Assembly (NCBI GenBank): GCA_021203905.1
Contig: JAJQAG010000004.1
Coordinates: forward strand, 65,090-129,089
Length of the DNA: 64,000 bases
Source of the DNA: Coprobacillus sp.
GTDB taxonomy: Bacteria; Bacillota_I; Bacilli_A; RFN20; CAG-826
Direction: 5' to 3'
Of the stretch, positions 2,547 through 26,225 are shown one piece after another. The notes beneath the pieces are model-generated. The model searched no databases and had not been told where the DNA came from. It was given only the letters and a program-made list of their open reading frames with translations. A program made the position numbers and the translations under genes. Within the stretch, counting starts at the first letter, position 1. Every line of letters starts with the position of its first letter.

Positions 2547-3582
2547 ATGAGCCTAAATCGTAGCGATCAAATTCTTAAATACATTGTCGAGTACTTCATT
2601 AAGAATGCAGAACCCGTGGGCTCTAAAACCTTGATTGAACTCTATAATCTCCCCTATAGCAGTGCGACAGTACGAAATGAGATGATGCACTTAGAAGAAG
2701 AGGGCTTTATTGAAAAGACCCATTCCTCTTCTGGAAGAGTTCCCTCCTCTAAAGGTTATCGATACTATTGTGATCACTTAAGAAACACAGAAGTGGATGA
2801 TGAATTAAAGAACTCTCTCGCCCAGGTACTTGCAAATAAGAGAAAATCCATTGAGGAAACCCTCCAAGCGAGTTGTGAGATTCTCTCCCATATGACCTCT
2901 CTCGTCTCCGTGGTTCTTGGCCCTGATGAGAAGAATGAGAAACTCGCATCTGTCCAACTCATCCAAATCAATGAGAAAACTGTGACTTCAGTCTTTGTTA
3001 CCGATAAAGGTTATGTCGAGAATAAGACCTTCATTGTTGAGGAAGGCCTCAATAGTGAAGATCTCGTCAACTGTGTGAAGATTATCAATGATCGCCTTGT
3101 GGGGACCGCTGTGAGTGACCTCGTTGAGAAGATGGAAGCAATCAAACCTCTTATTGAAGAGTATGTCATTAACCATGATGCTATCTATCAAGCACTTCTT
3201 GAAACCTTTGTGAGATTTGCCTCTGATCGATTATCACTCTATGGCAGAGATGAACTCTTCAACAATCCAGAGTTCAATAGTGACGCTGATAAACTCACAC
3301 GCGTCTTAAAACTATTAAATGATTCTAGTGCCTTTAAAGAAATCAGTGACCAAGATAAAGATGTGGGGATTCACATCGGTGATATTGTCGATAACCCCGA
3401 TATCTCCATGGTGAGCGCTAAAATCAAGATTGGAGAGGAAGGAGAGAATACCATCGCTCTCGTTGGTCCCACCCGTATGGATTACGATAAAGCGGTCTCC
3501 GCGATTGAGTATCTCGCTGATGAATTGAATAAATACTTCGTTTCTGGCGAAGACGTAAATAATGATGAAGGAGGAAATAGTG

Positions 3583-3596
<14 letters not shown>
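2547..3596 (+). CDS. hrcA: Heat-inducible transcription repressor HrcA
   Basis: 349 aa with typical HrcA length and position. Preceded by CIRCE elements and followed by grpE-dnaK-dnaJ. Confidence 0.9.
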
Positions 3597-6029
<2,433 letters not shown>

Positions 6030-6054
6030 TGATGGCTGCTTAAATCATATAACT

Positions 6055-6090
6055 ACCACCTGAGGGGTATCTGATACCCCTTTTGGTGGT
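6055..6090 (+). terminator. Intrinsic terminator/attenuator hairpin between dnaK and dnaJ
   Basis: ACCACC-tga-GGGGTAT-ctg-ATACCCC-TTTT-GGTGGT. The inner stem is 7 bp and is followed by a U-run. The outer ACCACC/GGTGGT arms can also pair. Confidence 0.7.
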
Positions 6091-6108
6091 TAATACAAGG
6101 TATTAACC

Positions 6109-7251
6109 ATGGCAGAAAAAAGAGATTATTATGAAGTATTAGGAGTTAGTAAGAGCGCGAGCAAGGATGAAATTAAATCCGCTTATCGAAGACTTGCCAA
6201 AAAGTATCATCCTGATAATCAACAGACGGGCGATGAAGCAAAGTTTAAGGAAGTCCAAGAAGCTTACGATATCTTATATGACGATAACAAGAGAGCGACC
6301 TATGATCAGTTTGGTTTCGCCGCTTTTGAGCAAGCGGGCACCAACCCAGGCGCTAACCCCTTTAATGGGGGTGGTGGTTTTGGGGGCTTCTCGAACCAAG
6401 ACGTGGATATCAATGATTTCTTCTCCTCATTCTTTGGAGGAGGGATGGGTGGTGCGAGAACCCAGAGAACTCAAAACGGCCCAATGAAAGGACAAGATGC
6501 CCTTTCAAGAGTCTCTATCGACTTCATGGACGCCGTCAACGGAAAGGATATGACTCTCTCCATCAATGTTGATGAGAAGTGTCGTAGTTGTGGTGGAACT
6601 GGAGCCAAATCCCCAAGCGATATCCACACTTGTGGCACTTGTGGTGGACGAGGCTATGTCCGTAGTCAAAGACGAAGTCTTTTTGGGGTCATGGAGAGTC
6701 AAGAACCATGTCCCAATTGTGGTGGCACTGGAAAGATTATCACAGATAAATGTCCCAATTGTAGTGGAAGAGGTTACGTTAGAAGCAAAGTTGACCAAGT
6801 CTTACATATTCCTGTGGGTATTAATGATGGTCAACAGATTAAAGTCGCCGGAAAAGGTGAAAGAGGGATTAATGGAGGCCCTAATGGAGACCTTTATGTG
6901 GAGGTATCCATTAAAAAGCACCCCTATTTCTCAAGAGAGGGCGATGACATTCATCTCGATATTCCTCTCGACTATGCGGATGCGTGTCTCGGATGTAAAA
7001 TTGATGTTCCGACAGTGTATGGGGATGTCACCCTTACCATCCCCGCGGGAACCCAATCCGGAACGATCTTAAGAATGCGGGGACAAGGCATTAAAAACCT
7101 CAGGACGAAAAAGCCTGGTGATCAATATGTTCACGTCAATATCAAGACTCCAGCGAGCCTAAACAAAGAGCAAAAAGAGGCCCTAGAAAAGTATAAGAGT
7201 GCGACCTCTGAAAATGTCTACGATAAATATAAGAAGACATTTAAAAAATAA
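6109..7251 (+). CDS. dnaJ: Co-chaperone DnaJ
   Basis: J-domain with an HPD motif (KYHPDNQ), a Gly-rich region and four CxxCxGxG zinc-finger repeats. Confidence 0.97.
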   Translation: MAEKRDYYEVLGVSKSASKDEIKSAYRRLAKKYHPDNQQTGDEAKFKEVQEAYDILYDDNKRATYDQFGFAAFEQAGTNPGANPFNGGGGFGGFSNQDVDINDFFSSFFGGGMGGARTQRTQNGPMKGQDALSRVSIDFMDAVNGKDMTLSINVDEKCRSCGGTGAKSPSDIHTCGTCGGRGYVRSQRRSLFGVMESQEPCPNCGGTGKIITDKCPNCSGRGYVRSKVDQVLHIPVGINDGQQIKVAGKGERGINGGPNGDLYVEVSIKKHPYFSREGDDIHLDIPLDYADACLGCKIDVPTVYGDVTLTIPAGTQSGTILRMRGQGIKNLRTKKPGDQYVHVNIKTPASLNKEQKEALEKYKSATSENVYDKYKKTFKK

Positions 7252-7254
7252 AAT

Positions 7255-7281
7255 AGGGAGTGAGAAAAAAACTCCCTTTTT
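7255..7281 (+). terminator. Intrinsic terminator downstream of dnaJ
   Basis: AGGGAGT-gagaaaaaa-ACTCCCT followed by TTTTT. Confidence 0.75.
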
Positions 7282-7332
7282 GCGTGTATTAACCAAAAAT
7301 TAACCGGATTTTTGATTATTTTGTGGGGTTTT

Positions 7333-7360
7333 TGTCAATTTTTGCGTTTTTCGCTAAAAT
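7333..7360 (+). promoter_or_regulatory. Putative SigA promoter for the island ABC operon (TTGTCA-16-TAAAAT)
   Basis: -35/-10-like hexamers with 16-bp spacing. An alternative TATAAT sits at 7434-7439, nearer the ATG at 7468. Confidence 0.4.
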
Positions 7361-7467
7361 ACCTAACAATACCCCCATTAAAGTCACTTATTTGTTTTTA
7401 TTTTTTCTCTTCACATATGCGCATAAATGTGTGTATAATACGTAAGATACGTGTGAGAGCGTACACT

Positions 7468-9807
7468 ATGACCTATTTAATCTGCTTATTAACTATTGTC
7501 ATCCCTGGGGGAATATATTCAATCCTTAGATTCTTAACAAAGATCTTCACTAAGGAAAGAATCGTTTGGTTATTAAGGACATTGGCTATCCTTGCTTTGG
7601 GTGTCTTTATCGTCAGATACTTCTCGACAGGAACGACCTTATTTACAGAAATCTTTGGTATGAAATCGAGTGAAGAAAATCCACAATTCTCTTCCTCTTT
7701 TACTTGTGTGATGGCGGATATCTGTGTGTGGTTTGAGTTCATGACGGTGATCATCGTGGTTCTCTACCCCTTCTTTATGAACAAATACCCCATCTTTATG
7801 AACTACGCTAAGTATCTCGGTCTCTTCTCCTGTGTCCTTAACATTGTCTTCCTTCGTTGGAGCGGCTTTGCCTTTACAGGAGATTACGCTTTAAACCTTA
7901 CCAGTGTGATGCTCGCGATAGAGATAGCCCTTGTCACACTCCTTTGTTTATATCCATACTCCGAAAAGGATGGGTATAAAATCTCTAAAAAAGAAGGAAA
8001 GGAAATGGGTATCTATCTTCCAGTAATCCTTCTTTTTTCTATCCCATTTTTCTTCTTCCAACCCCTAACTGGAAACCTTGGTCAATACCGCGCTGTGGAC
8101 TTTGATTTCTATCATCGTGTCTATCTCTATGCCGCGGTGGTTATCGTTATTGGGATGTATTTCTTACTCAGGAAGAGGGATCGGGAATTTATTCGTATGA
8201 TGTTGCTCTACGTCTCTCTAAGTATGCTGACAGCATACTTCTTCGATAAAGACTTTAACTGGTTCGCTTCTCCTAGTGAATATCCTCTTGGAATTATTGA
8301 TCTCTGTATGATCCTTATTCCCCTCTGTCTCTTGGTGAAGTGTAAGTGGCTGTATTACTTTACATTCCTTGTGGGAAGTGTAGGAGCCTTCGTCATGATG
8401 TTTATGCCCTCCTATAGTGCGAACTATGGCTTCTTCTATGCGGAGACGATGCAGTTCTGGATTGCTCAGATTGCGGTCTTTACTCTCCCCATCTTGATGG
8501 TGATGTGTCGAGTGTACGAGAGACCACAAAGTAAGGATTTAGGAGTGACTATAGGAGTCTTAGCCGCCTACGTCATTGTGGCAAGCTTTCTCTCTGGGTG
8601 GTTCAGCGGTCTATATGGAGAGTGCGACTTTGCCTATCTCAATAGTGCCTACCTTGCCTCTCAGATTGGAATGACCTCCTTCTTTAATAACAATGTGTGG
8701 ACTTTCTATCTTGGAGAGGTGGCGACTTCCATCCATCACTGGTATGTCTTAGCATACTTTGGCGTCTATGCCGTCTTTACAGTTATTGTCTATTATCTCT
8801 TTGTCTGGATCTTTTCCGTCCAAGACTACTTTACAAACATTGAAAATATTAATCATAAAATCCGCGTGGATGAATATATGAAAATGCAAGAACATCCCGG
8901 TGAAAAGGCAGGTGAGATTATGAATGAAGAAAGTGTCGACAAACTCGTTGTTAAGCATCTCTATAAGAGATACTCTCGTAGCAAGGTTTTATCCGTCGAA
9001 GATGCGAACTTTGAGGTGAGAGGGGGAGAGATCCTCGGCTTCCTCGGTCACAATGGCGCGGGTAAATCCACAATTATCAAATGTATCGTTGGTATTCAAC
9101 CCCCCTCAAGTGGAAGTGTGGAAATCAATGGCTACGATATCGCTAAAGAACCTGAAGAGGCCAAGATGCAGATTGGCTTCGTCCCTGATCACTATGCCTT
9201 ATATGAAAAACTCACCGGTCGTGAATATATTAACTATGTCGCTGACTTATATAAAGTCAGTAAAGAAGATAGAGATGAGCGATTAGAAAGATTATGCAAT
9301 AATCTTTCAATGACTAAAGCTATCGATAATCCTATTAATACCTATTCTCATGGTATGAAGCAGAAGACCGCGATTATGGCCGCCTTAATCCACGAGCCGA
9401 AACTCTGGATTCTCGATGAGCCACTCACGGGTCTTGATCCAACCTCAATCTATGAAGTGAAGGAGTGTATGAAAGAGCACGCCGCTAAAGGTAACATTGT
9501 CTTCTTCTCCTCTCACTTAATCGATGTCGTTGAGAAACTCTGTGATCGTATCATCATGATTAAAGAAGGTCACATCCTTCTCTCTGAACCCCTTGCGGAT
9601 ATTGAAGCGGAACACTCTGACCTCGAGCAATTCTATCTCGATGTCAATGCCACGCCCGTAGAGAGAAGAGTGGTCAATGATAAAGAGTTTAAGAAAATTA
9701 CTAAAGGAGAACCTAACGACTCTTACTTCTTTAAAACAGAAGATAAAGAAAAGAAGGTCAAAGTGAAAAAGGAAAAGGCTGAAAGTCAAGAAACTAGTGC
9801 GGAATAA
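7468..9807 (+). CDS. Atypical ABC protein with an N-terminal ~520-aa polytopic membrane domain fused to a C-terminal ABC ATPase domain. The ORF-track start at 7312 probably reads through the promoter region, with the likely start being the ATG at 7468.
   Basis: Walker A GHNGAGKST, signature-like YSHGMKQK, Walker B LWILDEPLTGLD, and an H-loop SSH. The Q-loop position reads IGFVPD, so D replaces the usual Q. The N-terminal half has many hydrophobic helices of unknown family. Confidence 0.75.
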   Translation: MTYLICLLTIVIPGGIYSILRFLTKIFTKERIVWLLRTLAILALGVFIVRYFSTGTTLFTEIFGMKSSEENPQFSSSFTCVMADICVWFEFMTVIIVVLYPFFMNKYPIFMNYAKYLGLFSCVLNIVFLRWSGFAFTGDYALNLTSVMLAIEIALVTLLCLYPYSEKDGYKISKKEGKEMGIYLPVILLFSIPFFFFQPLTGNLGQYRAVDFDFYHRVYLYAAVVIVIGMYFLLRKRDREFIRMMLLYVSLSMLTAYFFDKDFNWFASPSEYPLGIIDLCMILIPLCLLVKCKWLYYFTFLVGSVGAFVMMFMPSYSANYGFFYAETMQFWIAQIAVFTLPILMVMCRVYERPQSKDLGVTIGVLAAYVIVASFLSGWFSGLYGECDFAYLNSAYLASQIGMTSFFNNNVWTFYLGEVATSIHHWYVLAYFGVYAVFTVIVYYLFVWIFSVQDYFTNIENINHKIRVDEYMKMQEHPGEKAGEIMNEESVDKLVVKHLYKRYSRSKVLSVEDANFEVRGGEILGFLGHNGAGKSTIIKCIVGIQPPSSGSVEINGYDIAKEPEEAKMQIGFVPDHYALYEKLTGREYINYVADLYKVSKEDRDERLERLCNNLSMTKAIDNPINTYSHGMKQKTAIMAALIHEPKLWILDEPLTGLDPTSIYEVKECMKEHAAKGNIVFFSSHLIDVVEKLCDRIIMIKEGHILLSEPLADIEAEHSDLEQFYLDVNATPVERRVVNDKEFKKITKGEPNDSYFFKTEDKEKKVKVKKEKAESQETSAE

Positions 9808-9812
9808 AAGTT

Positions 9813-11555
9813 ATGGATGAGCAAGTAGTGGAAAAGAAGAGCTTTAAAGAGAGAATGTCTCACGTGTGGCACGCCGTGGCCTCTGTCTTTGCTACTGACC
9901 TTAGTGATGTCGCGGTACTCTACCGCATGCAGGTCAGAGAAAAGGTTGATTTCTCATATTTAAAGAGTGCCAAGAAAGCTCTTGGTCGTGGGCTTGTCCT
10001 TCTCGCCGAGTTTGCAATCGTCATGGCGGTTACTTATGGAATTCTTTGGGGTTGCCGTTATCTCGGTCTCTTCTCCCCTCTTGGCATTATTCCCACTTCC
10101 GTCATGAACGTTGTCTTCATCGTTCTCTTCCTCTTCTCCATCATCTCTTGTATGATTAGCCTTTCAAGAGATCTGTTTAAGGCGAAAGATAATGTCGTTC
10201 TTGAAACCTATCCAGTGAAGGCTAATGATATCTATCTCTCTAAGCTTGCGGTAGCGGTAGTGAAGGAAGTAAGAAGAACGATTATCTTCTATGTCCCAAT
10301 TTTCTTTGCCTACGCAGTGATTGCGGGACTAGCGGTCTACGCTTACTTCTGGATTCTCTTCTGGTTTATCTTCTTTACACTCTTTGAAATATTACTCGCG
10401 GGCATCTTAGCCCTTCCTGTCTACTATATTATTAGGTTCTTTAACCACTTCAACTGGGTAAAGATTGTCCTTGCGGTGGTCTTTGTGCTCGCTCTCATCT
10501 TCCTTGTGGTGTGGCTTGCCAGTATCATTCCCAGTAACATCAACCTCATAAGGACTTGGTCCGCAGTGAGTGAGTGGTTACGTGCTTTCCTCTCGTGGTG
10601 CACGGATAACCTGTATATCTTCTATGCCTTTACGACTTTCCTTGTGGGGAAACAACAAGGGGCAAGCATCATCTTCTTCACCAACTATTCTTGGTCAGTT
10701 CCTCTTATTATCATCGGTTGTATCCTCGTCTTCTTTGTCATCAATATCATTATCTCTAAGTACTTATACTTAAGGATTACGATGAGACAAAACGAGACCA
10801 CCCAAAAAGAGCACAAGGTCAAGAATAATGTCGCCCGCTCATCTTTTGGAGCGGGAGTCTACTACGAGAGTAAGAGAATCCTCTCCTATGGAGGAAAGCT
10901 AGCGACGATGATCACTGTGGTCATTGCCCTTCCACTGATGATTATCTTACTTAATCTTATCTATGCCGCGATGAAGACCAGACTCATGGGTGATTATCTC
11001 ATTGTCTGCTTTAACATCTTAGTTATTGTCCTGTTTACCACCTCCTCGAATGTGTGGGTGTCATCTATCTATTCAAAAGATGCGAATGCCCTGGTGATGG
11101 CAAGAACCTTCCCCACGAACTATGGGCAGACTCTCTTCCCGAGACTTGTCCTCCCCGCTTTAGTGACCGTTTTAACGGTTCTCCCTTCAACCTTTATCTT
11201 TACGATCCTGCAGGGGATTGGAGGTTGGGATATCCTATGGATAATTCTTATAGAATTATGCGTCTGTCTTGGTCATCTCCTTTGGAGTGCGGAGATTGAT
11301 TTCACGCATCCAAAACCTGAATTATATGAAACTAGTGGTAACGCTGCTTCTAACCCTAACGAAGCCAAGAGTATTGGTCTCTCCTTTGGATTAAGCGCGA
11401 TTACCATGGGACTTGTCTTAGTCTTCTTACTCATTAGCTCTAGTTATATGTATTTAAGAGTGCTATTATTTGCCGCCATCTTCCTCATATATCGTATTGT
11501 TTCCTTCTGTCTGAAGGGAAAGGCATTAAATAAACAAGAAGGAGGGAAGGAGTAA
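9813..11555 (+). CDS. Large polytopic membrane protein, a putative ABC-2-type exporter permease partner
   Basis: 580 aa with more than 12 predicted TM helices. It is translationally coupled to the upstream ATPase fusion, with a 5-nt gap. Confidence 0.55.
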   Translation: MDEQVVEKKSFKERMSHVWHAVASVFATDLSDVAVLYRMQVREKVDFSYLKSAKKALGRGLVLLAEFAIVMAVTYGILWGCRYLGLFSPLGIIPTSVMNVVFIVLFLFSIISCMISLSRDLFKAKDNVVLETYPVKANDIYLSKLAVAVVKEVRRTIIFYVPIFFAYAVIAGLAVYAYFWILFWFIFFTLFEILLAGILALPVYYIIRFFNHFNWVKIVLAVVFVLALIFLVVWLASIIPSNINLIRTWSAVSEWLRAFLSWCTDNLYIFYAFTTFLVGKQQGASIIFFTNYSWSVPLIIIGCILVFFVINIIISKYLYLRITMRQNETTQKEHKVKNNVARSSFGAGVYYESKRILSYGGKLATMITVVIALPLMIILLNLIYAAMKTRLMGDYLIVCFNILVIVLFTTSSNVWVSSIYSKDANALVMARTFPTNYGQTLFPRLVLPALVTVLTVLPSTFIFTILQGIGGWDILWIILIELCVCLGHLLWSAEIDFTHPKPELYETSGNAASNPNEAKSIGLSFGLSAITMGLVLVFLLISSSYMYLRVLLFAAIFLIYRIVSFCLKGKALNKQEGGKE

Positions 11556-11557
11556 AT

Positions 11558-11995
11558 ATGAAAAAGTCATCTCTATTCTTGATTGTTATTATCTATATTG
11601 TGTCAATTGTCGCCATTACATTCTTTGGTCAGTCCATTGAGATGGATCAATACAAAGTCTATATGTCTGATATTTGGATTAGCAATGAATCAGAAATTGT
11701 CTCTGGCAGCGATAACATTCGTAATATCAACATTACCTTTAATGATGATGAAGGGTGGGGCGGAATCATCCTTCACTATGAGTTCCTTCCTGAAGATGCG
11801 ACCGATAGTGACGCCGTGAAGTGGTCCTTATATGGTAACACTGGTATCTTAGCGGACACTGGTGAAGAGGTCGTTATTGCGGATATCGATGGGAAGGGAG
11901 AAGTGGTCTTCCATCGTCGAGGAATGGTGACCGCTTACGTGACCACAACCGATGGAAGTAACCTCGTCGATTCTGTGAGAATTACTTGCCGTTAG
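11558..11995 (+). CDS. Small membrane-anchored protein with a Big_2-like (bacterial Ig-like) C-terminal domain
   Basis: N-terminal TM/signal anchor. The C-terminus (…VVIADIDGKGEVVFHRRGMVTAYVTTTDGSNLVDSVRITC) resembles Big_2 domains. Confidence 0.5.
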   Translation: MKKSSLFLIVIIYIVSIVAITFFGQSIEMDQYKVYMSDIWISNESEIVSGSDNIRNINITFNDDEGWGGIILHYEFLPEDATDSDAVKWSLYGNTGILADTGEEVVIADIDGKGEVVFHRRGMVTAYVTTTDGSNLVDSVRITCR

Positions 11996-12028
11996 TGGAC
12001 TTTTTACGGAAAAATACTTAAAATATGA

Positions 12029-12056
12029 ATTGTGCCAAAAACGGCACAATTTTTAT
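12029..12056 (+). terminator. Intrinsic terminator after the island ABC operon
   Basis: ATTGTGCC-aaaaac-GGCACAAT followed by TTTTAT. Confidence 0.75.
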
Positions 12057-12113
12057 AAATTCCGTGTTTTTCAAGTCATTTTTATCAACGAAACGGCGAT
12101 ATTTTTAATTTTT

Positions 12114-12142
12114 TTGGTTTTTCAGTGGTTATTGTGTAGAAT
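12114..12142 (+). promoter_or_regulatory. Putative promoter of lipoprotein paralog 1 (TTGGTT-17-TAGAAT)
   Basis: Hexamers with 17-bp spacing. A good RBS AAGAGG lies 11 nt before the ATG at 12188. Confidence 0.35.
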
Positions 12143-12187
12143 ATAGTTAGTGAGAAGGATATAGGGATGAAGAAAGAGGCATAAGAT

Positions 12188-14842
12188 ATGAAAAAGAGAC
12201 TATTTTTAATGTCATGCATTGCGCTACTATCCGTGGGCTGTGTGACGATGACATCTTGTAAAGGAAAAGATGAAAGAAAGAATGAGTCTGTCAGTGTGGA
12301 GTTATATGGGCTTTATGCCTATTACTATCCAACCGATTCTATTGATTGGGATAGTGTCTATCTCGATGTCACTGTTTACGATAAAAAAGAAGAGATTGAT
12401 CATCTCACTCTCACTAGTGGAGAGTTTGATGTTAGTAAGCAAACTAGTGAGGAGAGCGACTTCGCTTTAAATACCTCTGGTCTTTATACAAATTCCATAA
12501 ATCAAAATACGATTCCGGAAGGGACTTATTCCCTTTCTTATTCTCTTGATTACAACGGAAGGGTCTATAGTGATAGTCTTTTCTCTATCACTGTGGCGAG
12601 CAATTTCTCTGGCATCCTTGAAGCGGAAACCTTCCAGCAACCAGATTCCATTATTAAATTCCTTCAGAATCAACAGAGAGTGGATAGTGAAGATAGTGAG
12701 AGTGAAAGCAATTTCATCGACTATGTCGATGAATATGTGGTTGGAGATGATAATCCCTTTATCTATCGTCCCACACTCGATCTTGTTCCCATTGGAGATA
12801 GCAGCGCTCGTCACTCCTATCCTAATGGTTATCCCGCTATTGTGACGGTAACTTACGACGGAAAAGAATTAGATTTAGATAATAACGAATATGTGACCTT
12901 TGATAGCGCAACCTTTGGTTTCCAGTTCACTAGCGAAGCCATTGGAAAGAGTTTTACTCTTTCTGTCTTTCCAAAAGACTTTAATGCGGACTGGTCTGGT
13001 CTTGCTCTTCAAACCCAGTCATTAACTGTCACTGTTCAAGATGGATACAATGTGTTTAAGGCTCTTGATTTAGGTCGTATGGCCCTTTCTAGTGGCGCGG
13101 ACTACTACATTGATGAAACCAATCACACGAGAACAGATAATAAAGGGAATTACTATGTCCCCTTTAGTAACTATATGTCCGAAGAGAATATTCTCTTTGT
13201 TCAAGATGAAACCACCGGACAAGCTCATTTTGAAAAGATTCGTTACGACGAGACTTGGTATAACTTCCTCGAAAGTCGTGGAGAGACTAATCTCAACGCT
13301 GTCAACGGCATCTTCTTACACGATGACATGGTGATTACGAACAATGATCTTCCTAGTGAATTCATCATTGGAGAAGATGAAGCGAAGTTCTTTGGAGTGG
13401 AATACGACGATATGGTGGGTTCCCTTAGAGATGAAGTCACTATCTATGACCACCAAATGGAAGAAGACTTTACTCTTAATGGTAATCTCTTTGATCTCGA
13501 CGCTAGTCATCTAAAGTGGGCGATGACTCGCCACTTAAACGATGATCCACTAGAGGGAGATGAAAGTGAGAGACAATTGATTTATTACACCGAGAATAAT
13601 ACCTCTTATGATGAAGGTCATAATGTCTTACTCTACGCTGATAACCACATTACCAAGAAAGATGATAGTAAATATCTTAAAGAGGACTTCTTAACCACTC
13701 ACGATGGTGAGAATAAGAAAGTCTATACCTTAAAGAACGTGGAACTCTTTGGTAACCAAGAGAGAAACTGGAATTTTGATCAAGCGAATGAAACTGAGGA
13801 TGCCTCTAAGGCCAGTGGATGTATGACTTGTTTTGAAAGCCGCGCTGGTAGCGCGGTGGTAAATAACGTCATCGTGAAGCACTTCCTTACTTCCTTCTAT
13901 TCTAATTACACTCTCAGTGGAGTGAAATGCTTAAATATCAGTGACTCAAAAATCTATGACTGCTATGGATGCGCTCTTTATGCGAGATACTCCGCAGAAA
14001 ATGTCATCTCTAATTCTGTCTTAAGACGTTTTGGAGGACCCGTTGTCGTCATGATGAGTGGAGAGGGAATCTGTGCTCATAGTGGTTATGATTATTCGAA
14101 AGTCGGATTTGAATTTACCAGTGATGTCGATTGTGAGGCCAACCTCTATGGTGGTGAGTCATGGTTTGATATTTACAATATCAAATCATATATCTCCTAT
14201 CTCAACTGGTTTGATGTTCTCTTCACCGGTGGTAGTCTCCTTGGGATGTTCTCCTTCCCTTCTATGGGTAAGACCATGTTTAATCCTGAGAGAAGCGATG
14301 GAGATTACTTTAATCTCATCGGTGGAGGATTTGATTATCGTGTCTATGGTGGATATCCTATCTATACCTCCCTTTCCTATAATGGAGTGGACTACACTTA
14401 CGACAGCCACTACGGACAAGAATTTAGTTATGTTGAGGATGGTGATCCTGATGATCCCGACAACCCCGATTACACCTACACTGATATCGATGGCTTTGAG
14501 CCCGATACCGAGTGCTTCTCTTACCTTGTGAACTCCTTCATTAATGATTCTAGTATGTCGAGTGTGGATCTCAGTGGTTTCCTCACCTTAACCACTCTCC
14601 CTGTCTTTATGACTAACACTGGAGAAGTCTTTGCCCTTGCTAGTGGCACAAAATTACTTGGACTTCCCCTTGATATGTATCTTGTTGATCTTAAGGCTTA
14701 CTACAATCGTGAGGACGAGTCCTCAAATGTTTTAAATTATAAATTTACTTCTCTTAATCCTGAGGATGACACGGTGTTTATGTATCTTAACATTGCGGGC
14801 ATTGTCTTAACCCTTTGTTTCTCCCTCTACGATTGTGACTAG
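12188..14842 (+). CDS. Large surface lipoprotein, paralog 1 of a 3-member tandem family (possibly beta-helix-type repeats)
   Basis: Signal peptide plus lipobox (LLSVGC). 884 aa. About 75-80% identical to paralog 2. Has a C-terminal hydrophobic tail (YLNIAGIVLTLCFSLY). Confidence 0.85.
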   Translation: MKKRLFLMSCIALLSVGCVTMTSCKGKDERKNESVSVELYGLYAYYYPTDSIDWDSVYLDVTVYDKKEEIDHLTLTSGEFDVSKQTSEESDFALNTSGLYTNSINQNTIPEGTYSLSYSLDYNGRVYSDSLFSITVASNFSGILEAETFQQPDSIIKFLQNQQRVDSEDSESESNFIDYVDEYVVGDDNPFIYRPTLDLVPIGDSSARHSYPNGYPAIVTVTYDGKELDLDNNEYVTFDSATFGFQFTSEAIGKSFTLSVFPKDFNADWSGLALQTQSLTVTVQDGYNVFKALDLGRMALSSGADYYIDETNHTRTDNKGNYYVPFSNYMSEENILFVQDETTGQAHFEKIRYDETWYNFLESRGETNLNAVNGIFLHDDMVITNNDLPSEFIIGEDEAKFFGVEYDDMVGSLRDEVTIYDHQMEEDFTLNGNLFDLDASHLKWAMTRHLNDDPLEGDESERQLIYYTENNTSYDEGHNVLLYADNHITKKDDSKYLKEDFLTTHDGENKKVYTLKNVELFGNQERNWNFDQANETEDASKASGCMTCFESRAGSAVVNNVIVKHFLTSFYSNYTLSGVKCLNISDSKIYDCYGCALYARYSAENVISNSVLRRFGGPVVVMMSGEGICAHSGYDYSKVGFEFTSDVDCEANLYGGESWFDIYNIKSYISYLNWFDVLFTGGSLLGMFSFPSMGKTMFNPERSDGDYFNLIGGGFDYRVYGGYPIYTSLSYNGVDYTYDSHYGQEFSYVEDGDPDDPDNPDYTYTDIDGFEPDTECFSYLVNSFINDSSMSSVDLSGFLTLTTLPVFMTNTGEVFALASGTKLLGLPLDMYLVDLKAYYNREDESSNVLNYKFTSLNPEDDTVFMYLNIAGIVLTLCFSLYDCD

Positions 14843-14881
14843 CTCTTACAAAGACAAATCTCTTTTAAACCAATACGAGAA

Positions 14882-14905
14882 AAGGGAAGAGAAATCTCCC
14901 TTTTT
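14882..14905 (+). terminator. Intrinsic terminator after lipoprotein 1
   Basis: AAGGGA-agagaaatc-TCCCTT followed by TTTTT. Confidence 0.55.
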
Positions 14906-14943
14906 CTTATTATTCGGTTTTACTCTTTTTAGGGAAATAGAGG

Positions 14944-14979
14944 ACATTTGTGGCACAAATGTTCGTTTTTTTTTTTTTT
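14944..14979 (+). terminator. Second hairpin plus T14 tract downstream of lipoprotein 1 (terminator with an unusually long U-tract)
   Basis: ACATTTGTG-g-CACAAATGT palindrome followed by tcg and then 14 consecutive T (14966-14979). Confidence 0.55.
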
Positions 14980-15103
14980 AAAATAAAAAACGCTGAATTA
15001 TTTAAAATTAGTTTATCTTTTAGAAAAAGATATTTATAATAAACGCGATTAGACAAAAGGGGACCCCTACGGGGGTGAATGATGGAAGGAAAAAGCGCAA
15101 AAA

Positions 15104-17746
15104 ATGAAAAGAAGAATGTTTATAATGTCGTGTATCGCTCTGATGTCAGTGGGGTGTGTGACGACAACTTCATGTGAAGAAATAGAAAAAAGATTAAATG
15201 AGTCTCTCAGTGTGGAGTTATATGGACTTAATGCCTATTATTCGCCCACTGATTCAATCGATTGGGAGAGTGTCTATCTCGATGTGACAGTCTTCAACAA
15301 GAAAGAAGAAGTCAATCACTTTACTCTTACTGATGGAGAGTTTGATGTGATTGAGCAAACTAGTGAGGAAAGCGGGTTTGCTCTTGATACCTCTGGTCTC
15401 TACACTAATAGTGTTAATGAAAATACAATTCCGGAAGGGACCTATCCCCTTACCTACTATTTTACCTATAATGAACAAGTCTATAGCGGTAGTCCTTTCT
15501 CTATCGTGGTGGCCTATGACTTCACTGCGGCTTATGAAGTAGTGGCCTTCCAGCAACCAGACACTATTATTAAATTCCTTCAGAATCAACAGAGAGTGGA
15601 TCGTGAAGACGATGTGAGTGAAAGCAATTTCATCGACTATGTCGATGAATATGTGGTTGGGGATGATAATCCTTTTATCTATCGTCCCACCCTCGAACTT
15701 ATTCCCACGGGAGAGGAGGACGCTACTCACCTCTATCCCACTAATTATCCAGTGAATGTCACTGTCACTGATGTTAGTGGAGAAGACGAAGAAGAATTAG
15801 ATCTTGATAATAATGAATATGTGACCTTTGATAGTGCGACCTTTGGTTTCCAATTCACTAGTGAAGCCATTGGAAAGAGTTTTACTCTTTCCGTCTATCC
15901 AAGAGGTTTCAGTCAAGATTTGTTTGGTCTTGCTATTCAAGCCCAGACTTTAACGGTCACTGTTCAAGATGGATATAACGTTTATAAACCTCTTGATTTA
16001 GGTCGTATGGCCCTTTCAAGTGGAAAGGATTACTACATTGATGAGGAAAATCATAGCAGAGTCAATAGTAGGGGATATTACTATGTTCCCTTCTCTAACT
16101 ATGTCACCGAATCAAAAGTTCTCTTTGTTCAAGATGAAGACACCGAGCAAGTCCATTTTGAACGAATTCAATATGACGAGACTTGGTATAACTTCCTTGA
16201 AAGTCGTGGAGAGACTGACTTAACCGCGGTTAACGGCATCTTCTTACACGATGACATGGTGATTACTAATAACGATATTCCTAGTGAATTTGTCATTAGT
16301 GAAGAAGAAGCCAAGTTCTTTGGAGTGGATTACGACGATATGGTGGGCTCTCTTAGAGATGAGGTCGCCATCTACGATCATCAGATGGAAGAGGACTTTA
16401 CCCTTAATGGTAATCTCTTCGCTCTTGATGCGAGCAACCTTAAATGGGCGATGACTCGTCATGGCTATGATGGTTCTGATGATGAATCTGGAAGAGAAAT
16501 AGAATATTATGCTGAGAATAATACTTCTTATGACGAAGGTCATAATGTCCTACTCTATGCGGATAATCACTTTACCCAAGAGGATGATGGTGATTACCTT
16601 AAAGAGGACTTCTTAGCCACTCACGATGGTGAGAATAAGAAGGTCTATACCTTAGAGAATGTCGAGCTCTTTGGTAACCAAGAGAGAAAATGGAATTATG
16701 ATCAAGCGGATGAGAATGAGGATGCCTCTAAGGCCAGTGGTTGTATGACCTGTTTTGAAAGCCGTGCTGGGAGCGCGGTGGTAAATAACGTCATCGTGAA
16801 GCACTTCCTTACTTCCTTCTATGCGTTTTACACTATTGCGGGAGTGACCTGCTTAGATATTAGTGACTCGAAGATCTATGACTGCTATGGAACCGCTTTA
16901 TACGCTCGCTTCTCCGCTGATAACATTATCTCTAACTCCGTCTTAAGACGTTTTGGAGGACCAGTGGTCGTCCTTATTAGTGGTGAAGGCGTCAGCGCTC
17001 ATAGTGGTTATGATTACTCTCGAGCGGGATTTGTATTTACCAGTGATGTCGATTGCGAGGCTAACCTCTATGGTGGTGAGTCATGGTTTGATATTTACAA
17101 TATCAAATCATATATCACTTATCTCAACTGGTTTGATGTTCTCTTTAGCGGTGGCAAACTCCTTGATCTTTACGAATTTAATTCCATGGGTAAGACACTC
17201 TTTAATCCTGAAAGAAGTGATGGAGATTACTTTAATCTCATCGCTGGGGGATTCGACCGTAAGATTAATGGTGGATATCAGATCAATACCTCGATTACCT
17301 ATAATGGAGTGGAGTACACCTATAATAACCACTACGGACAAGAATTCTCTCATACTGGTCAGCAATTCTACTTCACTGACATTGAAGGCTTTGAACCAGA
17401 TACGGAGTGCTTCTCCTATCTTGTGAATAAATTTATTGATGATACAAGTCTCTCATGTGTGGATCTCAGTGGCTATCTTACTTTAGAAACTCTCCCTGTC
17501 TTTATGACTAACACTGGAGAGGTCTTTGCCCTTGCTAGTGGCACACAACTCTTTGGCGTCCCACTAAGTATGTATCTTCTTGATCTTAAGGCTTATTACA
17601 ATCGTGGTGAGGAAGATTCTAGTTCAGCTTCAGACTATAAGTTTACCTCTCTTAATCCTGAGGATGACACGGTGTTTATGTATCTTAATATTGGAGGGAT
17701 CATCTTAACCCTTTGCTTCTCTCTCTACGACACTATTAGTGAATAA
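15104..17746 (+). CDS. Large surface lipoprotein, paralog 2
   Basis: Signal peptide plus lipobox (LMSVGC). 880 aa. Long stretches of near-identical DNA shared with paralog 1. Confidence 0.85.
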   Translation: MKRRMFIMSCIALMSVGCVTTTSCEEIEKRLNESLSVELYGLNAYYSPTDSIDWESVYLDVTVFNKKEEVNHFTLTDGEFDVIEQTSEESGFALDTSGLYTNSVNENTIPEGTYPLTYYFTYNEQVYSGSPFSIVVAYDFTAAYEVVAFQQPDTIIKFLQNQQRVDREDDVSESNFIDYVDEYVVGDDNPFIYRPTLELIPTGEEDATHLYPTNYPVNVTVTDVSGEDEEELDLDNNEYVTFDSATFGFQFTSEAIGKSFTLSVYPRGFSQDLFGLAIQAQTLTVTVQDGYNVYKPLDLGRMALSSGKDYYIDEENHSRVNSRGYYYVPFSNYVTESKVLFVQDEDTEQVHFERIQYDETWYNFLESRGETDLTAVNGIFLHDDMVITNNDIPSEFVISEEEAKFFGVDYDDMVGSLRDEVAIYDHQMEEDFTLNGNLFALDASNLKWAMTRHGYDGSDDESGREIEYYAENNTSYDEGHNVLLYADNHFTQEDDGDYLKEDFLATHDGENKKVYTLENVELFGNQERKWNYDQADENEDASKASGCMTCFESRAGSAVVNNVIVKHFLTSFYAFYTIAGVTCLDISDSKIYDCYGTALYARFSADNIISNSVLRRFGGPVVVLISGEGVSAHSGYDYSRAGFVFTSDVDCEANLYGGESWFDIYNIKSYITYLNWFDVLFSGGKLLDLYEFNSMGKTLFNPERSDGDYFNLIAGGFDRKINGGYQINTSITYNGVEYTYNNHYGQEFSHTGQQFYFTDIEGFEPDTECFSYLVNKFIDDTSLSCVDLSGYLTLETLPVFMTNTGEVFALASGTQLFGVPLSMYLLDLKAYYNRGEEDSSSASDYKFTSLNPEDDTVFMYLNIGGIILTLCFSLYDTISE

Positions 17747-17772
17747 CCTAAGAAATTACTAATGAATACAGA

Positions 17773-17795
17773 AAAGGACCTCGTGGTCCTTTTTT
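17773..17795 (+). terminator. Intrinsic terminator after lipoprotein 2
   Basis: AAAGGACC-tcgt-GGTCCTTT followed by TTTTT. Confidence 0.8.
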
Positions 17796-17925
17796 GGTAG
17801 CGAAAGAAGGAAAAAACGTAAAAAAATATTTACAATACTTTTTTTCTTTATTGAAAGAAAGTGTTAGTTATATAATAACTATGATTGAGTATAGGAAATG
17901 GTATTATAACAAGGAAGTAAGTTAT

Positions 17926-20448
17926 ATGAAAAAGAAAGCCCTTTTATTAGCCACCACCGCAGCATTAGCATTATGCTCCTTCTCCCTCTCTTCATGTAAT
18001 AAAAAGAAAAACAAAGATGTGGAAGAAGAGACTGTTAGTGTGGAAGTCTATGGTTTACAACCATATTATCTACCCACGGATAAGATTGATTGGGATAGTA
18101 TCTATCTAGAAGTGGAAGAGACTTATTACCATCATGGAGAATTTGATGTCACCAGTAAGAGTAAGAGTGAAACGGAATTCACTCTTGATACTTCTGGTCT
18201 CTACACATATACCAGCAATCAAAACACGATTCCTGAAGGGAGTTATCCGATTTCGTATTCCCTCGAATATGAAGGGACAAGCTACAGCGCGAAACTATTT
18301 ACCGTTTACGTGACTTCTAATGTCACCTCTCTCCTTCAAGCGGAATCTTTCTCCCAACCAGAATCAATTATTACCTGGGAGAGAAATCAAACGAGAGTGG
18401 ATACTTCCTCTAGTCAAGATGAGAGTAATTTCATTGAAGGCAAGAGTGAGTACACAGTGGGTTGTGATAATCCCTTTATCTATCGCCCAGTTTTAGAGAT
18501 CAGCGCGAATGACACTAAAAACACCACGGATGTCTATGCCTTCCCAAAGAGCTATGCGGCAAATGTGACTGTCACCCTTGATGGGACGGCGCTTGATGTC
18601 TCAAGTAACGAGTATGTCTCCTTTGATGAGACAGACTTTGGTTTCCAGTTCACTGAAGCGGCTATTGGTAAGACCTTTACCCTCACCATCGCTCCAAGAG
18701 ACTTTACTTCCATTTGGGGAATGTATGTCCTTGAAAGTCAAAGTGTCACGGTGACTGTTCAAAAAGGATGGAATGTCAATAACGCCATCGATCTTGGAAG
18801 AATCAATCTTCTTAGTGATGAGTATAAACCATATATTGACTACTACGAGTACGCAAAACCCAAAGTGAACGAAAAGGAAGTCGCCGGAATCTTCTGGGAC
18901 TCCTCTCGTGGCTACTATAATGAATACAACTATAAGATTTGGGAAAACTTCCTTACTAGTAAAGGAAGAGATGATCTTACTTATACCAGTGCGATATATC
19001 TCCACGATGACATCAATGTCACCATTGATGATATTCCCAGTGAGTTTATCGTCTCTCAAGAAGAGATCAACGCTCAACCAAACCCCAGTCTATATAGCAA
19101 TGATGTCCTTAACTCCGTTAAGGATGGAGTGTATATCTATACTCATTATCTCCAAGGTGAAGACTTTACCCTTGATGGGAATCTCTTCTCCATCCGTTGC
19201 TCCTCTCTTAAGTGGTGCATGACTAGGGTTGATAATGAACAAGGTGATTTTAGATACTACGCGACGAATAAAGCGGACCGCTATAAGATGTGTCACGCGG
19301 CTCTCTTCTCCATTAACGATGTCGCGGATAAGAGTGAAAGTGGACTTCCTAGTGCCCTAACAGAAAGATATAGTGCCACCTTTACTAATATTGAAGCTCA
19401 CGGAAACCAAGAGAGAATTAATCCAGAAGAAGCGACAAGCTATGATAGTCAACTCGCTAGTGGTTGCCTCATCTTTCTTAGAAGTGCTTCCAGTAATACG
19501 AAAGTGACTAATGTTTTAGCGAAGAACTTCCTTCAAGGTTATTATTGCTGCTACTCCGATGATAGCTACTGTGCCTTTGAAGTTGATAAATGTAAAATCT
19601 ACGATTGCTATGGATCTCCTTTCTTTGGTTATGGCAGTAGTAAGAATAAGACCACTAATAGTATTATGTCTCGTTTCGGTGGCCCAATCGTCGTCCTTAA
19701 TAGTGTCTATGGCAATAAATTCCAGCATTGTGGTTGGGAGATAGATGAGTGTGATTATGAATCTCTTCTCATCGGGACAGAAGCGTGGTTTGATATCTTA
19801 GGAATCTCCTCTGTTATTCCTTTCTTTACCGATATTGATAATTGCTTTACAGGAAACGGTAATGTCTTTATCCCTGGTTTTACCTCTAAAGGCTATGGTA
19901 AGTCCCTTAAGAATGAAGATGGCTACTTTGATGTTATAGGTGTCGGTAATGATGCCTCAAGCGGAATGATCGGTGGAGAAGTCGTTGATATCTCGATGAC
20001 TTTCGATGGAGATACTTATTCCTATTCGAGTGATGAAGTTCCTAGTGAACCTGACCCCGAAAACTTTGCTTGGGTCGCTAATGCGTATTATTCAGATTAT
20101 GGAACTCTATATGTCGATGGGGGCTTAATGTGCGAGTTAGCGGGTAATCGTCTCCCCATCTTTATGACGAACACCGGAAAGATCTTTGGTATCCTTCTCT
20201 CAAATAGTAGGACCGCTCTCGTCGATATGGTGGACTTCTATACGAAGTACATTGCTATTGATAATGAGTATTCTAATCGAGATAAGACGGACGCTAACGC
20301 TGAAGAAGCCTTCTGGATGGAGCACTATCCTGAGATGGTGGATATCGAATTTGATGAGGATGATACCTCCGTTTTTGGAATTGATATCACCTCAGCGATG
20401 ACCATTTGTCTCGCCCTAAGACTCTTTGATTATCCCTACGCGGAATAA
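17926..20448 (+). CDS. Large surface lipoprotein, paralog 3, a more divergent family member. The ORF-track start at 17794 reads through the promoter region, and the ATG at 17926 has an AAGGAAG RBS.
   Basis: MKKKALLLATTAALALCSFSLSSC signal/lipobox. Conserved family blocks (VSVEVYGL, NQNTIPEG, NPFIYRP, FGFQFTEAAIGKTFTL, VTVTVQ, LDLGR, LHDD, FTLDGNLF, KIYDCYG, RFGGP.VV). Confidence 0.8.
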   Translation: MKKKALLLATTAALALCSFSLSSCNKKKNKDVEEETVSVEVYGLQPYYLPTDKIDWDSIYLEVEETYYHHGEFDVTSKSKSETEFTLDTSGLYTYTSNQNTIPEGSYPISYSLEYEGTSYSAKLFTVYVTSNVTSLLQAESFSQPESIITWERNQTRVDTSSSQDESNFIEGKSEYTVGCDNPFIYRPVLEISANDTKNTTDVYAFPKSYAANVTVTLDGTALDVSSNEYVSFDETDFGFQFTEAAIGKTFTLTIAPRDFTSIWGMYVLESQSVTVTVQKGWNVNNAIDLGRINLLSDEYKPYIDYYEYAKPKVNEKEVAGIFWDSSRGYYNEYNYKIWENFLTSKGRDDLTYTSAIYLHDDINVTIDDIPSEFIVSQEEINAQPNPSLYSNDVLNSVKDGVYIYTHYLQGEDFTLDGNLFSIRCSSLKWCMTRVDNEQGDFRYYATNKADRYKMCHAALFSINDVADKSESGLPSALTERYSATFTNIEAHGNQERINPEEATSYDSQLASGCLIFLRSASSNTKVTNVLAKNFLQGYYCCYSDDSYCAFEVDKCKIYDCYGSPFFGYGSSKNKTTNSIMSRFGGPIVVLNSVYGNKFQHCGWEIDECDYESLLIGTEAWFDILGISSVIPFFTDIDNCFTGNGNVFIPGFTSKGYGKSLKNEDGYFDVIGVGNDASSGMIGGEVVDISMTFDGDTYSYSSDEVPSEPDPENFAWVANAYYSDYGTLYVDGGLMCELAGNRLPIFMTNTGKIFGILLSNSRTALVDMVDFYTKYIAIDNEYSNRDKTDANAEEAFWMEHYPEMVDIEFDEDDTSVFGIDITSAMTICLALRLFDYPYAE

Positions 20449-20477
20449 TCGCCAAGATCTCTACTCAGATATAAAAT

Positions 20478-20501
20478 GACTAGACGATGTCTAGTCTTTT
20501 T
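20478..20501 (+). terminator. Intrinsic terminator after lipoprotein 3
   Basis: GACTAGAC-gat-GTCTAGTC followed by TTTTT. Confidence 0.8.
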
Positions 20502-20599
20502 ATTTATCCAGTTATTTGTCACTGTCTAAATATTTTTCTTTTTATTTTCTCCCAGTTTTCTCTCTTTCTCCCCTAATAGATATATAACGAGAGGAAAAA

Positions 20600-23608: not shown

Positions 23609-24070
23609 ATGAAAATTCTATTTTCTAGTTTTTCTTCTAACTACAAAGAATATGAAGCTCTTTTTCTTTCTCTTCTAGAAAAGACTACTTCGATGCTTGA
23701 TTATAATTTTTCCCCTATTGTCAGTGTGGATCTTGTGAAGGAAGAGGTCATTCACACTCTTAATAAACAATACCGGGGAATAGATAGACCCACTGATGTT
23801 CTCTCTTTTGCTTATCTAGAGAATGAAGAAGATAAAGCCGCGATTTTTGCCTCTAGTGAAGAGGTGGAACTAGGGGATATTATTATTTGTTTACCCATTG
23901 CTCGTAAACAAGCTATAGCCTATAAACATAGTGAAAAGAGAGAACTTTGTTTTCTCTTCGTTCATGGATTATTACACCTCTTTGGATATGATCATCAGAA
24001 TAGTAATGATGAGAGAGAGATGTTCTCCCTCCAAGATAAAATCTTAAAAGAAAGCGGGATCGACAGATGA
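23609..24070 (+). CDS. ybeY: rRNA maturation endoribonuclease YbeY
   Basis: HGLLHLFGYDH metal-binding motif. 153 aa. Followed by cdd-era-recO as in Bacillus. Confidence 0.9.
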   Translation: MKILFSSFSSNYKEYEALFLSLLEKTTSMLDYNFSPIVSVDLVKEEVIHTLNKQYRGIDRPTDVLSFAYLENEEDKAAIFASSEEVELGDIIICLPIARKQAIAYKHSEKRELCFLFVHGLLHLFGYDHQNSNDEREMFSLQDKILKESGIDR

Positions 24071-24465
24071 AAGAAGAATTAATTAATAAAGCTAAAGAAG
24101 CGATGAATCTCTCTTATTCTCCATATTCTCATTTTAAAGTTGGAGCGGCGCTTGAAACCACAGGTGGAGAGATATATGTGGGCACAAACATTGAGAATGC
24201 CTCTTATCCCCTATGTATGTGCGCGGAGCGTAACGCTCTTTATAATGCCTATTGTCATGGAGTGAAGAAAGAGGATATTACCACTTTAGTGGTAATTGGA
24301 GAGACAGATGAGCCCATCTCTCCTTGCGGGGCGTGTCGTCAAGTGATGAGTGAACTCCTTTCTAAAGATTGTGTCATCGTTTTATGTAACACTAAAGGAG
24401 AGGTAAAAGAAACCCGTATTGATGAACTCCTTCCCTCTTCCTTTAAAGGAGAAGATTTAAAGTAA
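24067..24465 (+). CDS. cdd: Cytidine deaminase
   Basis: CAERNA and PCGACRQ zinc-binding motifs. 132 aa. Confidence 0.92.
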   Translation: MKEELINKAKEAMNLSYSPYSHFKVGAALETTGGEIYVGTNIENASYPLCMCAERNALYNAYCHGVKKEDITTLVVIGETDEPISPCGACRQVMSELLSKDCVIVLCNTKGEVKETRIDELLPSSFKGEDLK

Positions 24466-24467
24466 GG

Positions 24468-25355: not shown

Positions 25356-25356
25356 G

Positions 25357-26085: not shown

Positions 26086-26169
26086 TAAAACCTTCTTACT
26101 TGAAGAGAACAATAAAACTATATGCAATCTGATAATTGCATAAAGGAAGAAAATAACACTCATATTAGG

Positions 26170-26198: not shown

Positions 26199-26225
26199 AT
26201 TTTCCTGTGTGTAGGAGAAATAATC

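Follow-up and report, generated by a model that had tools for sequence, protein, structure and literature searches.

What kind of transport system is encoded by a gene in which a large polytopic membrane domain is joined, on a single chain, to the ATPase of an ATP-binding cassette (ABC) protein, and which is directly followed by a gene for a second large membrane protein? The gene pair in question lies on contig JAJQAG010000004.1 of Coprobacillus sp. (Erysipelotrichales, Bacillota), within a 64-kb stretch of DNA that is here called the window, and it comprises a fusion protein of 779 amino acids (7468..9807) and a partner of 580 amino acids (9813..11555), both on the + strand, as are all the genes of the system described below. 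The same two open reading frames (ORFs) had been delineated in an earlier, sequence-only reading of the locus, in which the N-terminal domain was considered to belong to an unrecognisable family, the ATPase motifs were termed non-canonical and the overall arrangement was said to match no standard exporter. Both products are 100% identical to proteins called on a contig of a Coprobacillus sp. metagenome-assembled genome. We agree with that reading that it is unusual for an ABC-2-type nucleotide-binding domain (NBD) to be preceded by a polytopic domain on its N-terminal side. The explanation that we favour, and regard as reasonably probable, is an ordinary type V exporter to which a membrane module derived from the YwaF/TMEM164 family has been tethered, encoded in a conserved lipoprotein cassette and carrying, in this lineage, a module that has lost its Cys/His dyad. 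The layout of the core transporter is already known; what sets the system apart is the joining of an enzyme-like module to an ABC ATPase in an operon with lipoproteins, along with a dyad that has been lost in nature.

From its ORF, its Pfam and NCBIfam matches and the alignment of its homologues, the fusion gene was assigned a two-part product, with a membrane module of the long YwaF/TMEM164 type and, C-terminal to it, an NBD that is ABC-2/DrrA-like. Within the module, residues 214-447 (8107..8808) form a TMEM164/YwaF (PF14808) core of seven transmembrane (TM) helices, which was matched by Pfam over residues 218-419 with an E-value of 4.5e-7 and 30.1 bits (cut-off, 25) when the N-terminal region was scanned alone. 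The same family was recovered in all five of the homologues scanned (38.7-70.6 bits, E 1e-10 to 2e-19), precomputed PF14808 annotations were concordant in six proteins, and one relative bears the NCBI name “YwaF family protein”. According to the structure model, the core is preceded by an N-terminal extension with six predicted TM helices (residues 1-195; 7468..8052), which forms part of what we term the long YwaF module, and is followed by a cytoplasmic linker helix (residues 448-490; 8809..8937), which contains a conserved KI+V+EY motif and joins TM13 to the NBD. The AlphaFold model of the fusion contains 13 TM helices plus the linker helix, with one continuous helix spanning residues 424-475, and the membrane part thus modelled covers ~475 residues rather than the ~520 first estimated. 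Lys and Arg residues number nine in the inside loops of the module and three in its outside loops; because these charges are concentrated in the inside loops, the model fits an N-out topology with a cytoplasmic NBD. A Foldseek search of the PDB with the full-length fusion model returned matches to the NBD only, and none to the membrane module.

An exhaustive profile search with the module yielded 424 representatives at 50% clustering, 97 of them with E <= 1e-30, and these fell into two length classes, namely the fusions of 720-830 amino acids and a shorter class of 460-500 amino acids, which covers the whole profile without an NBD. The stand-alone relatives of ~480 amino acids span profile positions 1-455, while ordinary YwaF proteins of ~240 amino acids match positions ~218-393 only. 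At the loci of the shorter class the ~480-residue ORFs are complete, and no NBD, permease or lipoprotein gene is found nearby. Since a stand-alone form exists, long YwaF is an independent protein type that was fused to an ABC ATPase, and not a transport domain; together with the above-threshold PF14808 match, its occurrence outside the fusions removes the N-terminal region from the ranks of the unrecognisable. Stand-alone long YwaF genes, which form a family of their own, were seen at loci from human-gut and other metagenomes (L034-L049; e.g., L035, 5920-7512, and L037, 5953-7491), where they carry the PLQLC and E-H motifs discussed below and where the neighbouring genes vary; a metagenome scan for such contexts with one family member (P0149) gave no match, and a scan with the PLQLC group succeeded. 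An alignment of the N-terminal half with the TMEM164 core by hhalign (probability 47%, E 2e-4) hints that this half may be an ancient, degenerate duplicate of the core. In that alignment an invariant residue of the N-terminal half, Glu152, lies opposite the core His.

The core His belongs to a conserved residue pair. Human TMEM164 is a phospholipid-dependent acyltransferase, which uses a Cys123 acyl-enzyme intermediate together with His181, and in the superfamily as a whole, bacterial YwaF included, core TM2 bears a nucleophile that varies (Cys, Ser or Thr) and core TM4 a His that does not (bioRxiv 10.1101/2022.07.06.498872; PMC12830759). Among the long YwaF proteins, two polar residues are more conserved than any others: a Cys is found within a P-[LF]-[HQ]-[LI]-C motif in 125 of 131 representatives and a His within an N/E-H motif in 121 of 126, and the two occur together in 143 of the 155 sequences that have residues at both positions (~92%). 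The pair is separated by 57 residues, versus 58 for C123 and H181 of the human protein, and the model places its members on core TM2 and TM4. From this conservation, spacing and helix position we infer that the family Cys/His pair is the counterpart of the TMEM164 dyad. By the model and the charge rule, the pair would lie on the outer-leaflet side of the bilayer. The window protein carries Ile277 (8296-8298) and Gln334 (8467-8469) at these positions, and its nearest relatives are likewise devoid of the dyad (Thr/Gly in P0145, Ser/Arg in P0002 and Ser/Gln in P0152). Because the Cys and His have been replaced by Ile277 and Gln334, the YwaF core is probably catalytically dead in the window lineage.

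The ATPase domain occupies residues 491-727 (8938..9648) and matches PF00005 with an E-value of 2e-30 (106.6 bits; cut-off, 25). Its core motifs are intact, including the Walker A sequence GHNGAGKST (K533), the Walker B sequence WILDEP (Glu651) and the H-loop SSH (His683). Two motifs deviate, exactly as had been noted from the sequence: the Q-loop stretch IGFVPDHYALY has Asp574 (9187-9189) at the position of the Gln, and the signature YSHGMKQK has His628 (9349-9351) in place of the first Gly of SGG, the Ser and the second Gly being retained. Both substitutions are genuine, for the phmmer alignments to ABCA3 and ABCA4 contain no gap by which the Gln might have been offset, and in them Asp574 pairs with the Q-loop Gln and His628 with the first Gly. 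The best NCBIfam matches of the NBD were to TIGR01188 drrA (E 6e-62, 209.6 bits versus a curated cut-off of 312.45) and to GldA (4e-60), both under their cut-offs; the domain is accordingly related to the DrrA subfamily by sequence, without being a member by the curated threshold. Sequence alignments to PDB entries were obtained for ABCA proteins, 4rvc, 1vpl, NosF, LptB and Rv1218c, and the top structural matches found by Foldseek were EcsA (9a6w_B, 35% identity), 4rvc, NosF and LptB.

The deviant motifs are shared throughout the clade. VPDHYALYE and YSHGMKQK are invariant across 11 full-length fusions whose membrane parts share only 30-41% identity, and among the best 120 NBD matches from a search of 5.8 billion proteins, VPD was present in 114 and YSHGMKQK in 118. 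Since the motifs are invariant in relatives with such divergent membrane parts, the Q-to-D and G-to-H replacements are conserved clade traits and not signs of degeneracy. Functional precedents exist as well. In LanF ATPases a Glu occupies the Q-loop position (the “E-loop”), where it is needed for function and dispensable for ATP hydrolysis (bioRxiv 10.1101/2025.10.09.681468), and Rv1218c, part of a transporter by which resistance to rifampicin is conferred, has the signature YSKGN, where Lys replaces that same Gly (PMC11406275). An unrelated ABC-2 NBD encoded at locus L007 combines a Glu in the Q-loop with an SLGM signature. No precedent was found for Asp, rather than Glu, at the Q-loop position. 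The term non-canonical is therefore apt for the residues themselves, but the anomaly that it implied falls away with their clade-wide occurrence and these precedents. As the Walker A, Walker B Glu, D-loop and H-loop are all intact, ATP hydrolysis is likely retained, and the Q-loop Asp and signature His are, judged from the sequence, most likely compatible with it. A hidden Markov model (HMM) built from this NBD detected no second NBD of its kind in the window, in agreement with the single NBD gene reported before, and two identical altered sites would therefore form in a homodimer.

The possibility that this NBD clade commonly occurs unfused was raised by three public proteins with 60-70% identity (P0088, P0121 and P0027) and was rejected on inspection of their loci, since at L010 the ORF extends upstream, the gene of L011 is frameshifted and L013 ends at a contig edge. 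The apparent stand-alone ATPases P0088 (251 amino acids) and P0121 (308 amino acids) are miscalled pieces of fusions: the upstream-running ORF at L010 (5579-7756) gives a fusion of 725 amino acids, and the fusion at L011 is split by the frameshift into two parts (5554-6174 and 6041-7927). Because fusions are miscalled in this way in public records, the architecture is under-counted in databases.

The 580-residue partner (9813..11555) was identified as a permease with two fused type V (ABC-2) transmembrane domains (TMDs), which was placed with PF16949 through its homologues; 14 of 16 aligned permease homologues match this family (best E, 1.2e-7), and precomputed matches are also on record. The model of the permease has 12 TM helices, and not more than 12 as had been supposed, and its sole extracytoplasmic feature is a small hairpin at residues 280-287. 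The model has the type V exporter fold, which is defined by six helices per TMD, by the absence of domain swapping and by a coupling helix in the TM2-TM3 interval. The closest structural matches of the model were NosY (16.2), ABCA4 and ABCG2 (15.7 each), Cdr1 (14.3), Rv1217c (13.9, over 399 aligned residues), PmtD (12.3) and CcmB (10.7), with Wzm, KpsM and LptF/G further down. The putative coupling helices are AKDNVVLETYP (residues 123-133) and SKDANALVMARTFP (residues 421-434). The former represents the motif [S/A]-[K/R]-D-N-x-V-L-x-T-[Y/F]-P, a short helix between TM2 and TM3 in the first half of the protein, and the latter the motif Y-S-[R/K]-[D/E]-G ... [K/R]-T-x-P, a short helix between TM8 and TM9 in the second half; both motifs are kept across 36 permeases. 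Their conserved Lys/Arg residues may be candidate partners of the Q-loop Asp. The repeated motif is clear, though a comparison of the two halves gave a probability of 7%, and together these hint at an internal duplication.

The NBD and the 580-residue permease thus conform to a known type V layout, in which one two-TMD chain is served by an NBD homodimer. This view is well supported, since Rv1217c of Mycobacterium tuberculosis is a single two-TMD chain served by a homodimer of Rv1218c, and it replaces the earlier impression that the system fits no standard exporter. It is equally well supported that the complete transporter consists of one 12-TM, two-TMD permease and two copies of one NBD, each of which carries a 13-helix module.

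The system does not end with the permease gene at 11555, as the extent first proposed (7468-11555) implied, and the cassette runs on to ~20448. In every locus long enough to be scored, the order is fusion, permease, a protein of ~140 amino acids with a TM segment and a Big_2 domain, and one to three large lipoproteins. Some 25 distinct fetched loci were long enough for the order to be read, and it was the same in all of them; they belong to metagenome-assembled genomes (MAGs) of Clostridia, Bacilli, Christensenellaceae and Coprobacillus. As judged from the record names, the samples had been taken from rabbit, yak and goat. The genes on either side of the cassette are unrelated from locus to locus, and overlaps between genes of the cassette are frequent. 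In the window, the small protein (145 amino acids; 11558..11995) is anchored in the membrane at its N-terminus and has an Ig-like domain of the Big_2 type on the extracytoplasmic side, and its orthologue at L011 matches PF02368 Big_2 with an E-value of 6e-6.

Three large paralogues follow in the window. In the first (884 amino acids; 12188..14842), the lipobox reads LSVGC and a right-handed beta-helix is weakly indicated; the second (880 amino acids; 15104..17746) has the lipobox MSVGC and is 78% identical to the first; and the third (~840 amino acids from the ATG at 17926; 17926..20448) has the lipobox LSSC and is 40% identical to the first. A lipobox Cys was present in every large downstream protein examined, that is, in the three window paralogues and in seven orthologues, and Cys24 is invariant in an alignment of 15 lipoprotein sequences; the large proteins are predicted to be surface lipoproteins. 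Across loci they range from 740 to 1546 amino acids, and searches of the PDB and NCBIfam with the large lipoprotein returned no credible match. Since other loci hold one or two copies and the window three, this component appears to be expanded in the present genome. A terminator-like hairpin lies behind the third paralogue (20478-20496), and sites with a hairpin and a T-run also occur between the three lipoprotein genes. Two loci show variations in this part of the cassette: at L005 the lipoprotein (9331-13971; 1546 amino acids) has a Big_3 domain, and at L021 a lipoprotein copy (334-2754) lies upstream of the fusion gene and not downstream.

Several known systems resemble the cassette in part, the nearest analogies being Rv1217c-Rv1218c in layout and signature, NosDFY in permease fold and partner proteins, EcsA in the NBD and LanFEG in the acidic Q-loop. 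Rv1217c-Rv1218c (PDB 8k1m, PMC11406275) combines, as here, one 12-TM, two-TMD chain, whose TMDs are non-identical, with a separate DrrA-like NBD homodimer. Rv1218c is matched by the window NBD at E 3.6e-28, with YSKGN versus YSHGM at the same Gly position of the signature. On the other hand, Rv1218c is devoid of an N-terminal membrane module, no Big_2 anchor or lipoprotein is co-encoded with the pair, the identity between Rv1217c and the window permease is ~9%, and the Q-to-D replacement is unreported in Rv1218c. The copper-site assembly system NosDFY(L) (PDB 7o0y) has an NBD, NosF, close to that of the window, and it is an ABC-2 system with extracytoplasmic partners that include a lipoprotein. 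NosY, however, is a homodimer of 6-TM subunits, in contrast to the fused 12-TM chain found here, the system is Gram-negative and periplasmic and has no YwaF module, and NosD and NosL have no detectable homology to window proteins.

On the enzyme side, the module shares the Pfam match and the seven-helix core with TMEM164/YwaF, of the ATGY superfamily, to which membrane acyl-transferases and hydrolases belong. It differs from them in its doubled length, which is due to an additional N-terminal half of six helices, in its fusion to an NBD and, in the window, in the replaced dyad residues. In EcsAB of Bacillus and Staphylococcus, EcsA is the top Foldseek match of the window NBD cited above, and in the entry 9a6w EcsA is modelled in complex with RasP, an enzyme embedded in the membrane, which provides a non-covalent precedent for an ABC-2 NBD beside an intramembrane enzyme; EcsB, in contrast, is smaller and of a different permease family, RasP is an unfused protease, and no lipoprotein cassette accompanies EcsAB. 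LanFEG likewise has an ABC-2-type NBD with an acidic residue for the Q-loop Gln, but the residue is Glu and not Asp, the permease consists of two separate 6-TM subunits, no enzyme-like domain is present and the genomic context is another.

The start of the fusion gene was placed at the ATG at 7468. A TTG at 7312 was considered as an alternative start and discarded. The ATG is the likely start because 10 homologues align from it and because a promoter-like site (TTCACA-18 nt-TATAAT; 7410..7439, + strand) lies between the two codons, downstream of the TTG and 29 nt 5' of the ATG. This site, a consensus match only (11/12 positions), is the top-scoring one within 7000-21000, and it is preceded by a terminator hairpin behind dnaJ (~7255-7282). 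Between the stop codon of the fusion (TAA, 9805-9807) and the permease ATG at 9813 there are 5 nt, and at homologous loci a 4-nt overlap of the pair is often seen; tight (translational) coupling of the two genes is plausible, if not proven. Upstream, the cassette is flanked by the grpE-dnaK-dnaJ operon (3562-7251) and downstream by a housekeeping block of ybeY, cdd, era, recO, a tRNA synthetase gene and dnaG (23609-29430). Its GC content (0.39-0.43) does not depart from that of the flanking DNA. The gene adjoining the cassette (20600-21841) encodes a protein of 413 amino acids with an N-terminal C39 peptidase domain (E 6e-14) and a membrane region, without an ABC NBD. C39 domains are usually found on bacteriocin ABC exporters. 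A bacteriocin link via this neighbour was considered and dismissed, the gene being absent beside the cassette in other loci.

How might such a system work? According to the explanation favoured here, the fusion, the permease, the Big_2 anchor protein and the surface lipoproteins form one conserved unit, in which the YwaF module would act as an accessory, enzyme-derived membrane domain beside the transporter and outside the translocation path. The acidic Q-loop residue probably tunes the coupling of NBD to TMD, in the manner of the LanF E-loop, and pairs perhaps with the Lys/Arg of the permease. The complex probably acts, as type V systems do elsewhere, on a membrane lipid of the outer leaflet or on a surface molecule held there by a lipid anchor; alternatively, it may pass ATP-driven movement to extracellular partners. 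In most family members the Cys/His core would acylate or deacylate this substrate in cis, whereas in the window lineage the dyad-less core has most likely been kept as a non-catalytic, lipid-binding or scaffolding module.

A number of observations weigh against this explanation. The fusion model is of medium confidence (predicted local distance difference test score 65.9, from a six-sequence alignment), and the window permease itself has no Pfam match at E<=1. TMEM164 was not reached among PDB sequences by profiles of the whole module or of a diverse, 17-sequence core, and it is for this reason that the equivalence of the dyads rests on conservation, spacing and helix position. In the window protein a further Cys (Cys280, in DLC) lies three residues past Ile277, one helical turn on, and could in principle stand in for the lost nucleophile, with no His nearby. 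That an NBD with a Q-loop Asp can hydrolyse ATP is presumed by analogy with Glu. Finally, the right-handed beta-helix family PF13229 is matched by paralogue 1 (E 0.017) and by five of 15 relatives (best E, 0.0035), all under the cut-off, and such a fold would suit another mode of action.

That other mode is a mechanotransmitter comparable to NosDFY or FtsEX, in which no substrate crosses the membrane and motion is conveyed via the permease and the Big_2 anchor to beta-helix lipoproteins; the lipoprotein, for example a glycan-acting enzyme or an adhesin, would thereby be activated or loaded. In favour of this mode are the beta-helix structure of NosD, the rank of NosF among the best matches to the NBD, the invariable co-encoding of the lipoprotein genes and the weak PF13229 matches. 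Yet those matches are without exception under threshold, the lipoprotein profile matches neither NosD nor any PDB chain, and the permease model offers only its small hairpin and no large extracytoplasmic domain. Moreover, the other type V matches, which are exporters of lipids and polymers, score nearly as high, and the YwaF module would be left unexplained; we consider this mode unlikely, while still giving it appreciable weight. Rather less credence is given to a bolder view, in which the YwaF-NBD fusion is an ATP-coupled machine for the remodelling of lipid anchors. An outward-facing Cys/His transacylase would take a phospholipid as donor and form an acyl-Cys intermediate as in TMEM164, its targets would be the anchor or N-terminus of the co-encoded lipoproteins or a glycolipid that they bind, and the type V ABC module would extract or position the substrate, the window form being a derived pseudoenzyme. 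Such a machine would join the non-homologous systems LnsAB, Lit and Bacillus N-acetylation (PMC7387801, PMC8275575, PMC12345273).

The remaining alternatives concern the nature of the ATPase, the substrate and the N-terminal domain. Q-loop and signature motifs contact Mg/water and the gamma-phosphate, and with both of them altered a homodimer would have no canonical site; the Q-to-D and G-to-H replacements could thus have abolished hydrolysis and left a regulatory module or one that only binds ATP. Against such a degenerate ATPase stand the intact Walker A Lys, Walker B Glu, D-loop and H-loop His, a strict clade-wide conservation that argues for selection over decay, the LanF Glu, which is essential for function and not for hydrolysis, and the service of Rv1218c, with its YSKGN, in a rifampicin-resistance transporter, all of which render it improbable. 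A shade less probable still is an exporter for immunity to peptides or antibiotics, of the LanFEG, BcrAB or PmtCD type, with the lipoproteins as LanI-like binders. It draws on the resemblance of the acidic Q-loop to the E-loop, on NBD matches to the lantibiotic-protection family (8e-42) and PmtA (3e-39), and on the C39-peptidase-like membrane protein next to the cassette. Those NBD scores, however, are far under the cut-offs of the families, other loci have unrelated flanks without C39-like or bacteriocin genes, lipoproteins of 740-1546 amino acids are unlike LanI, and the window flanks are housekeeping genes. The most improbable of the explanations weighed is that the N-terminal domain is a novel transport TMD, forming an unprecedented hetero-TMD exporter with the 580-residue protein. 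The domain is polytopic and covalently joined to the NBD, and the six helices of its first 195 residues have no family assignment, as this would require; but PF14808, to which residues 214-447 are assigned, is a family of enzymes, the whole ~475-residue module occurs stand-alone without nearby ABC genes, and the 580-residue partner already supplies two type V TMDs and two coupling-helix motifs, as in Rv1217c-Rv1218c.

In the literature searched, no description was found of the YwaF-NBD fusion or of its cassette, and the proteins are labelled generically in databases. To our knowledge, bacterial YwaF proteins have no known function, and human TMEM164 is the only characterised relative. The association of a YwaF-ATPase fusion with lipoproteins in many uncultured gut Firmicutes offers a strong guilt-by-association lead on the role of YwaF, which points to outer-leaflet acyl-chain chemistry coupled with a use of ATP to handle a lipid, or a surface component that is anchored by one. 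If the remodelling machine described above were true, Firmicutes would have a novel path for the acyl remodelling of lipoproteins or lipids, and bacterial YwaF proteins their first function. The fixed Q-loop Asp and signature His of the clade are useful to probe these positions in type V transporters, and the family itself provides a natural comparison of active and dead forms, with Cys/His in ~92% of its members and Ile/Gln in the protein described here.

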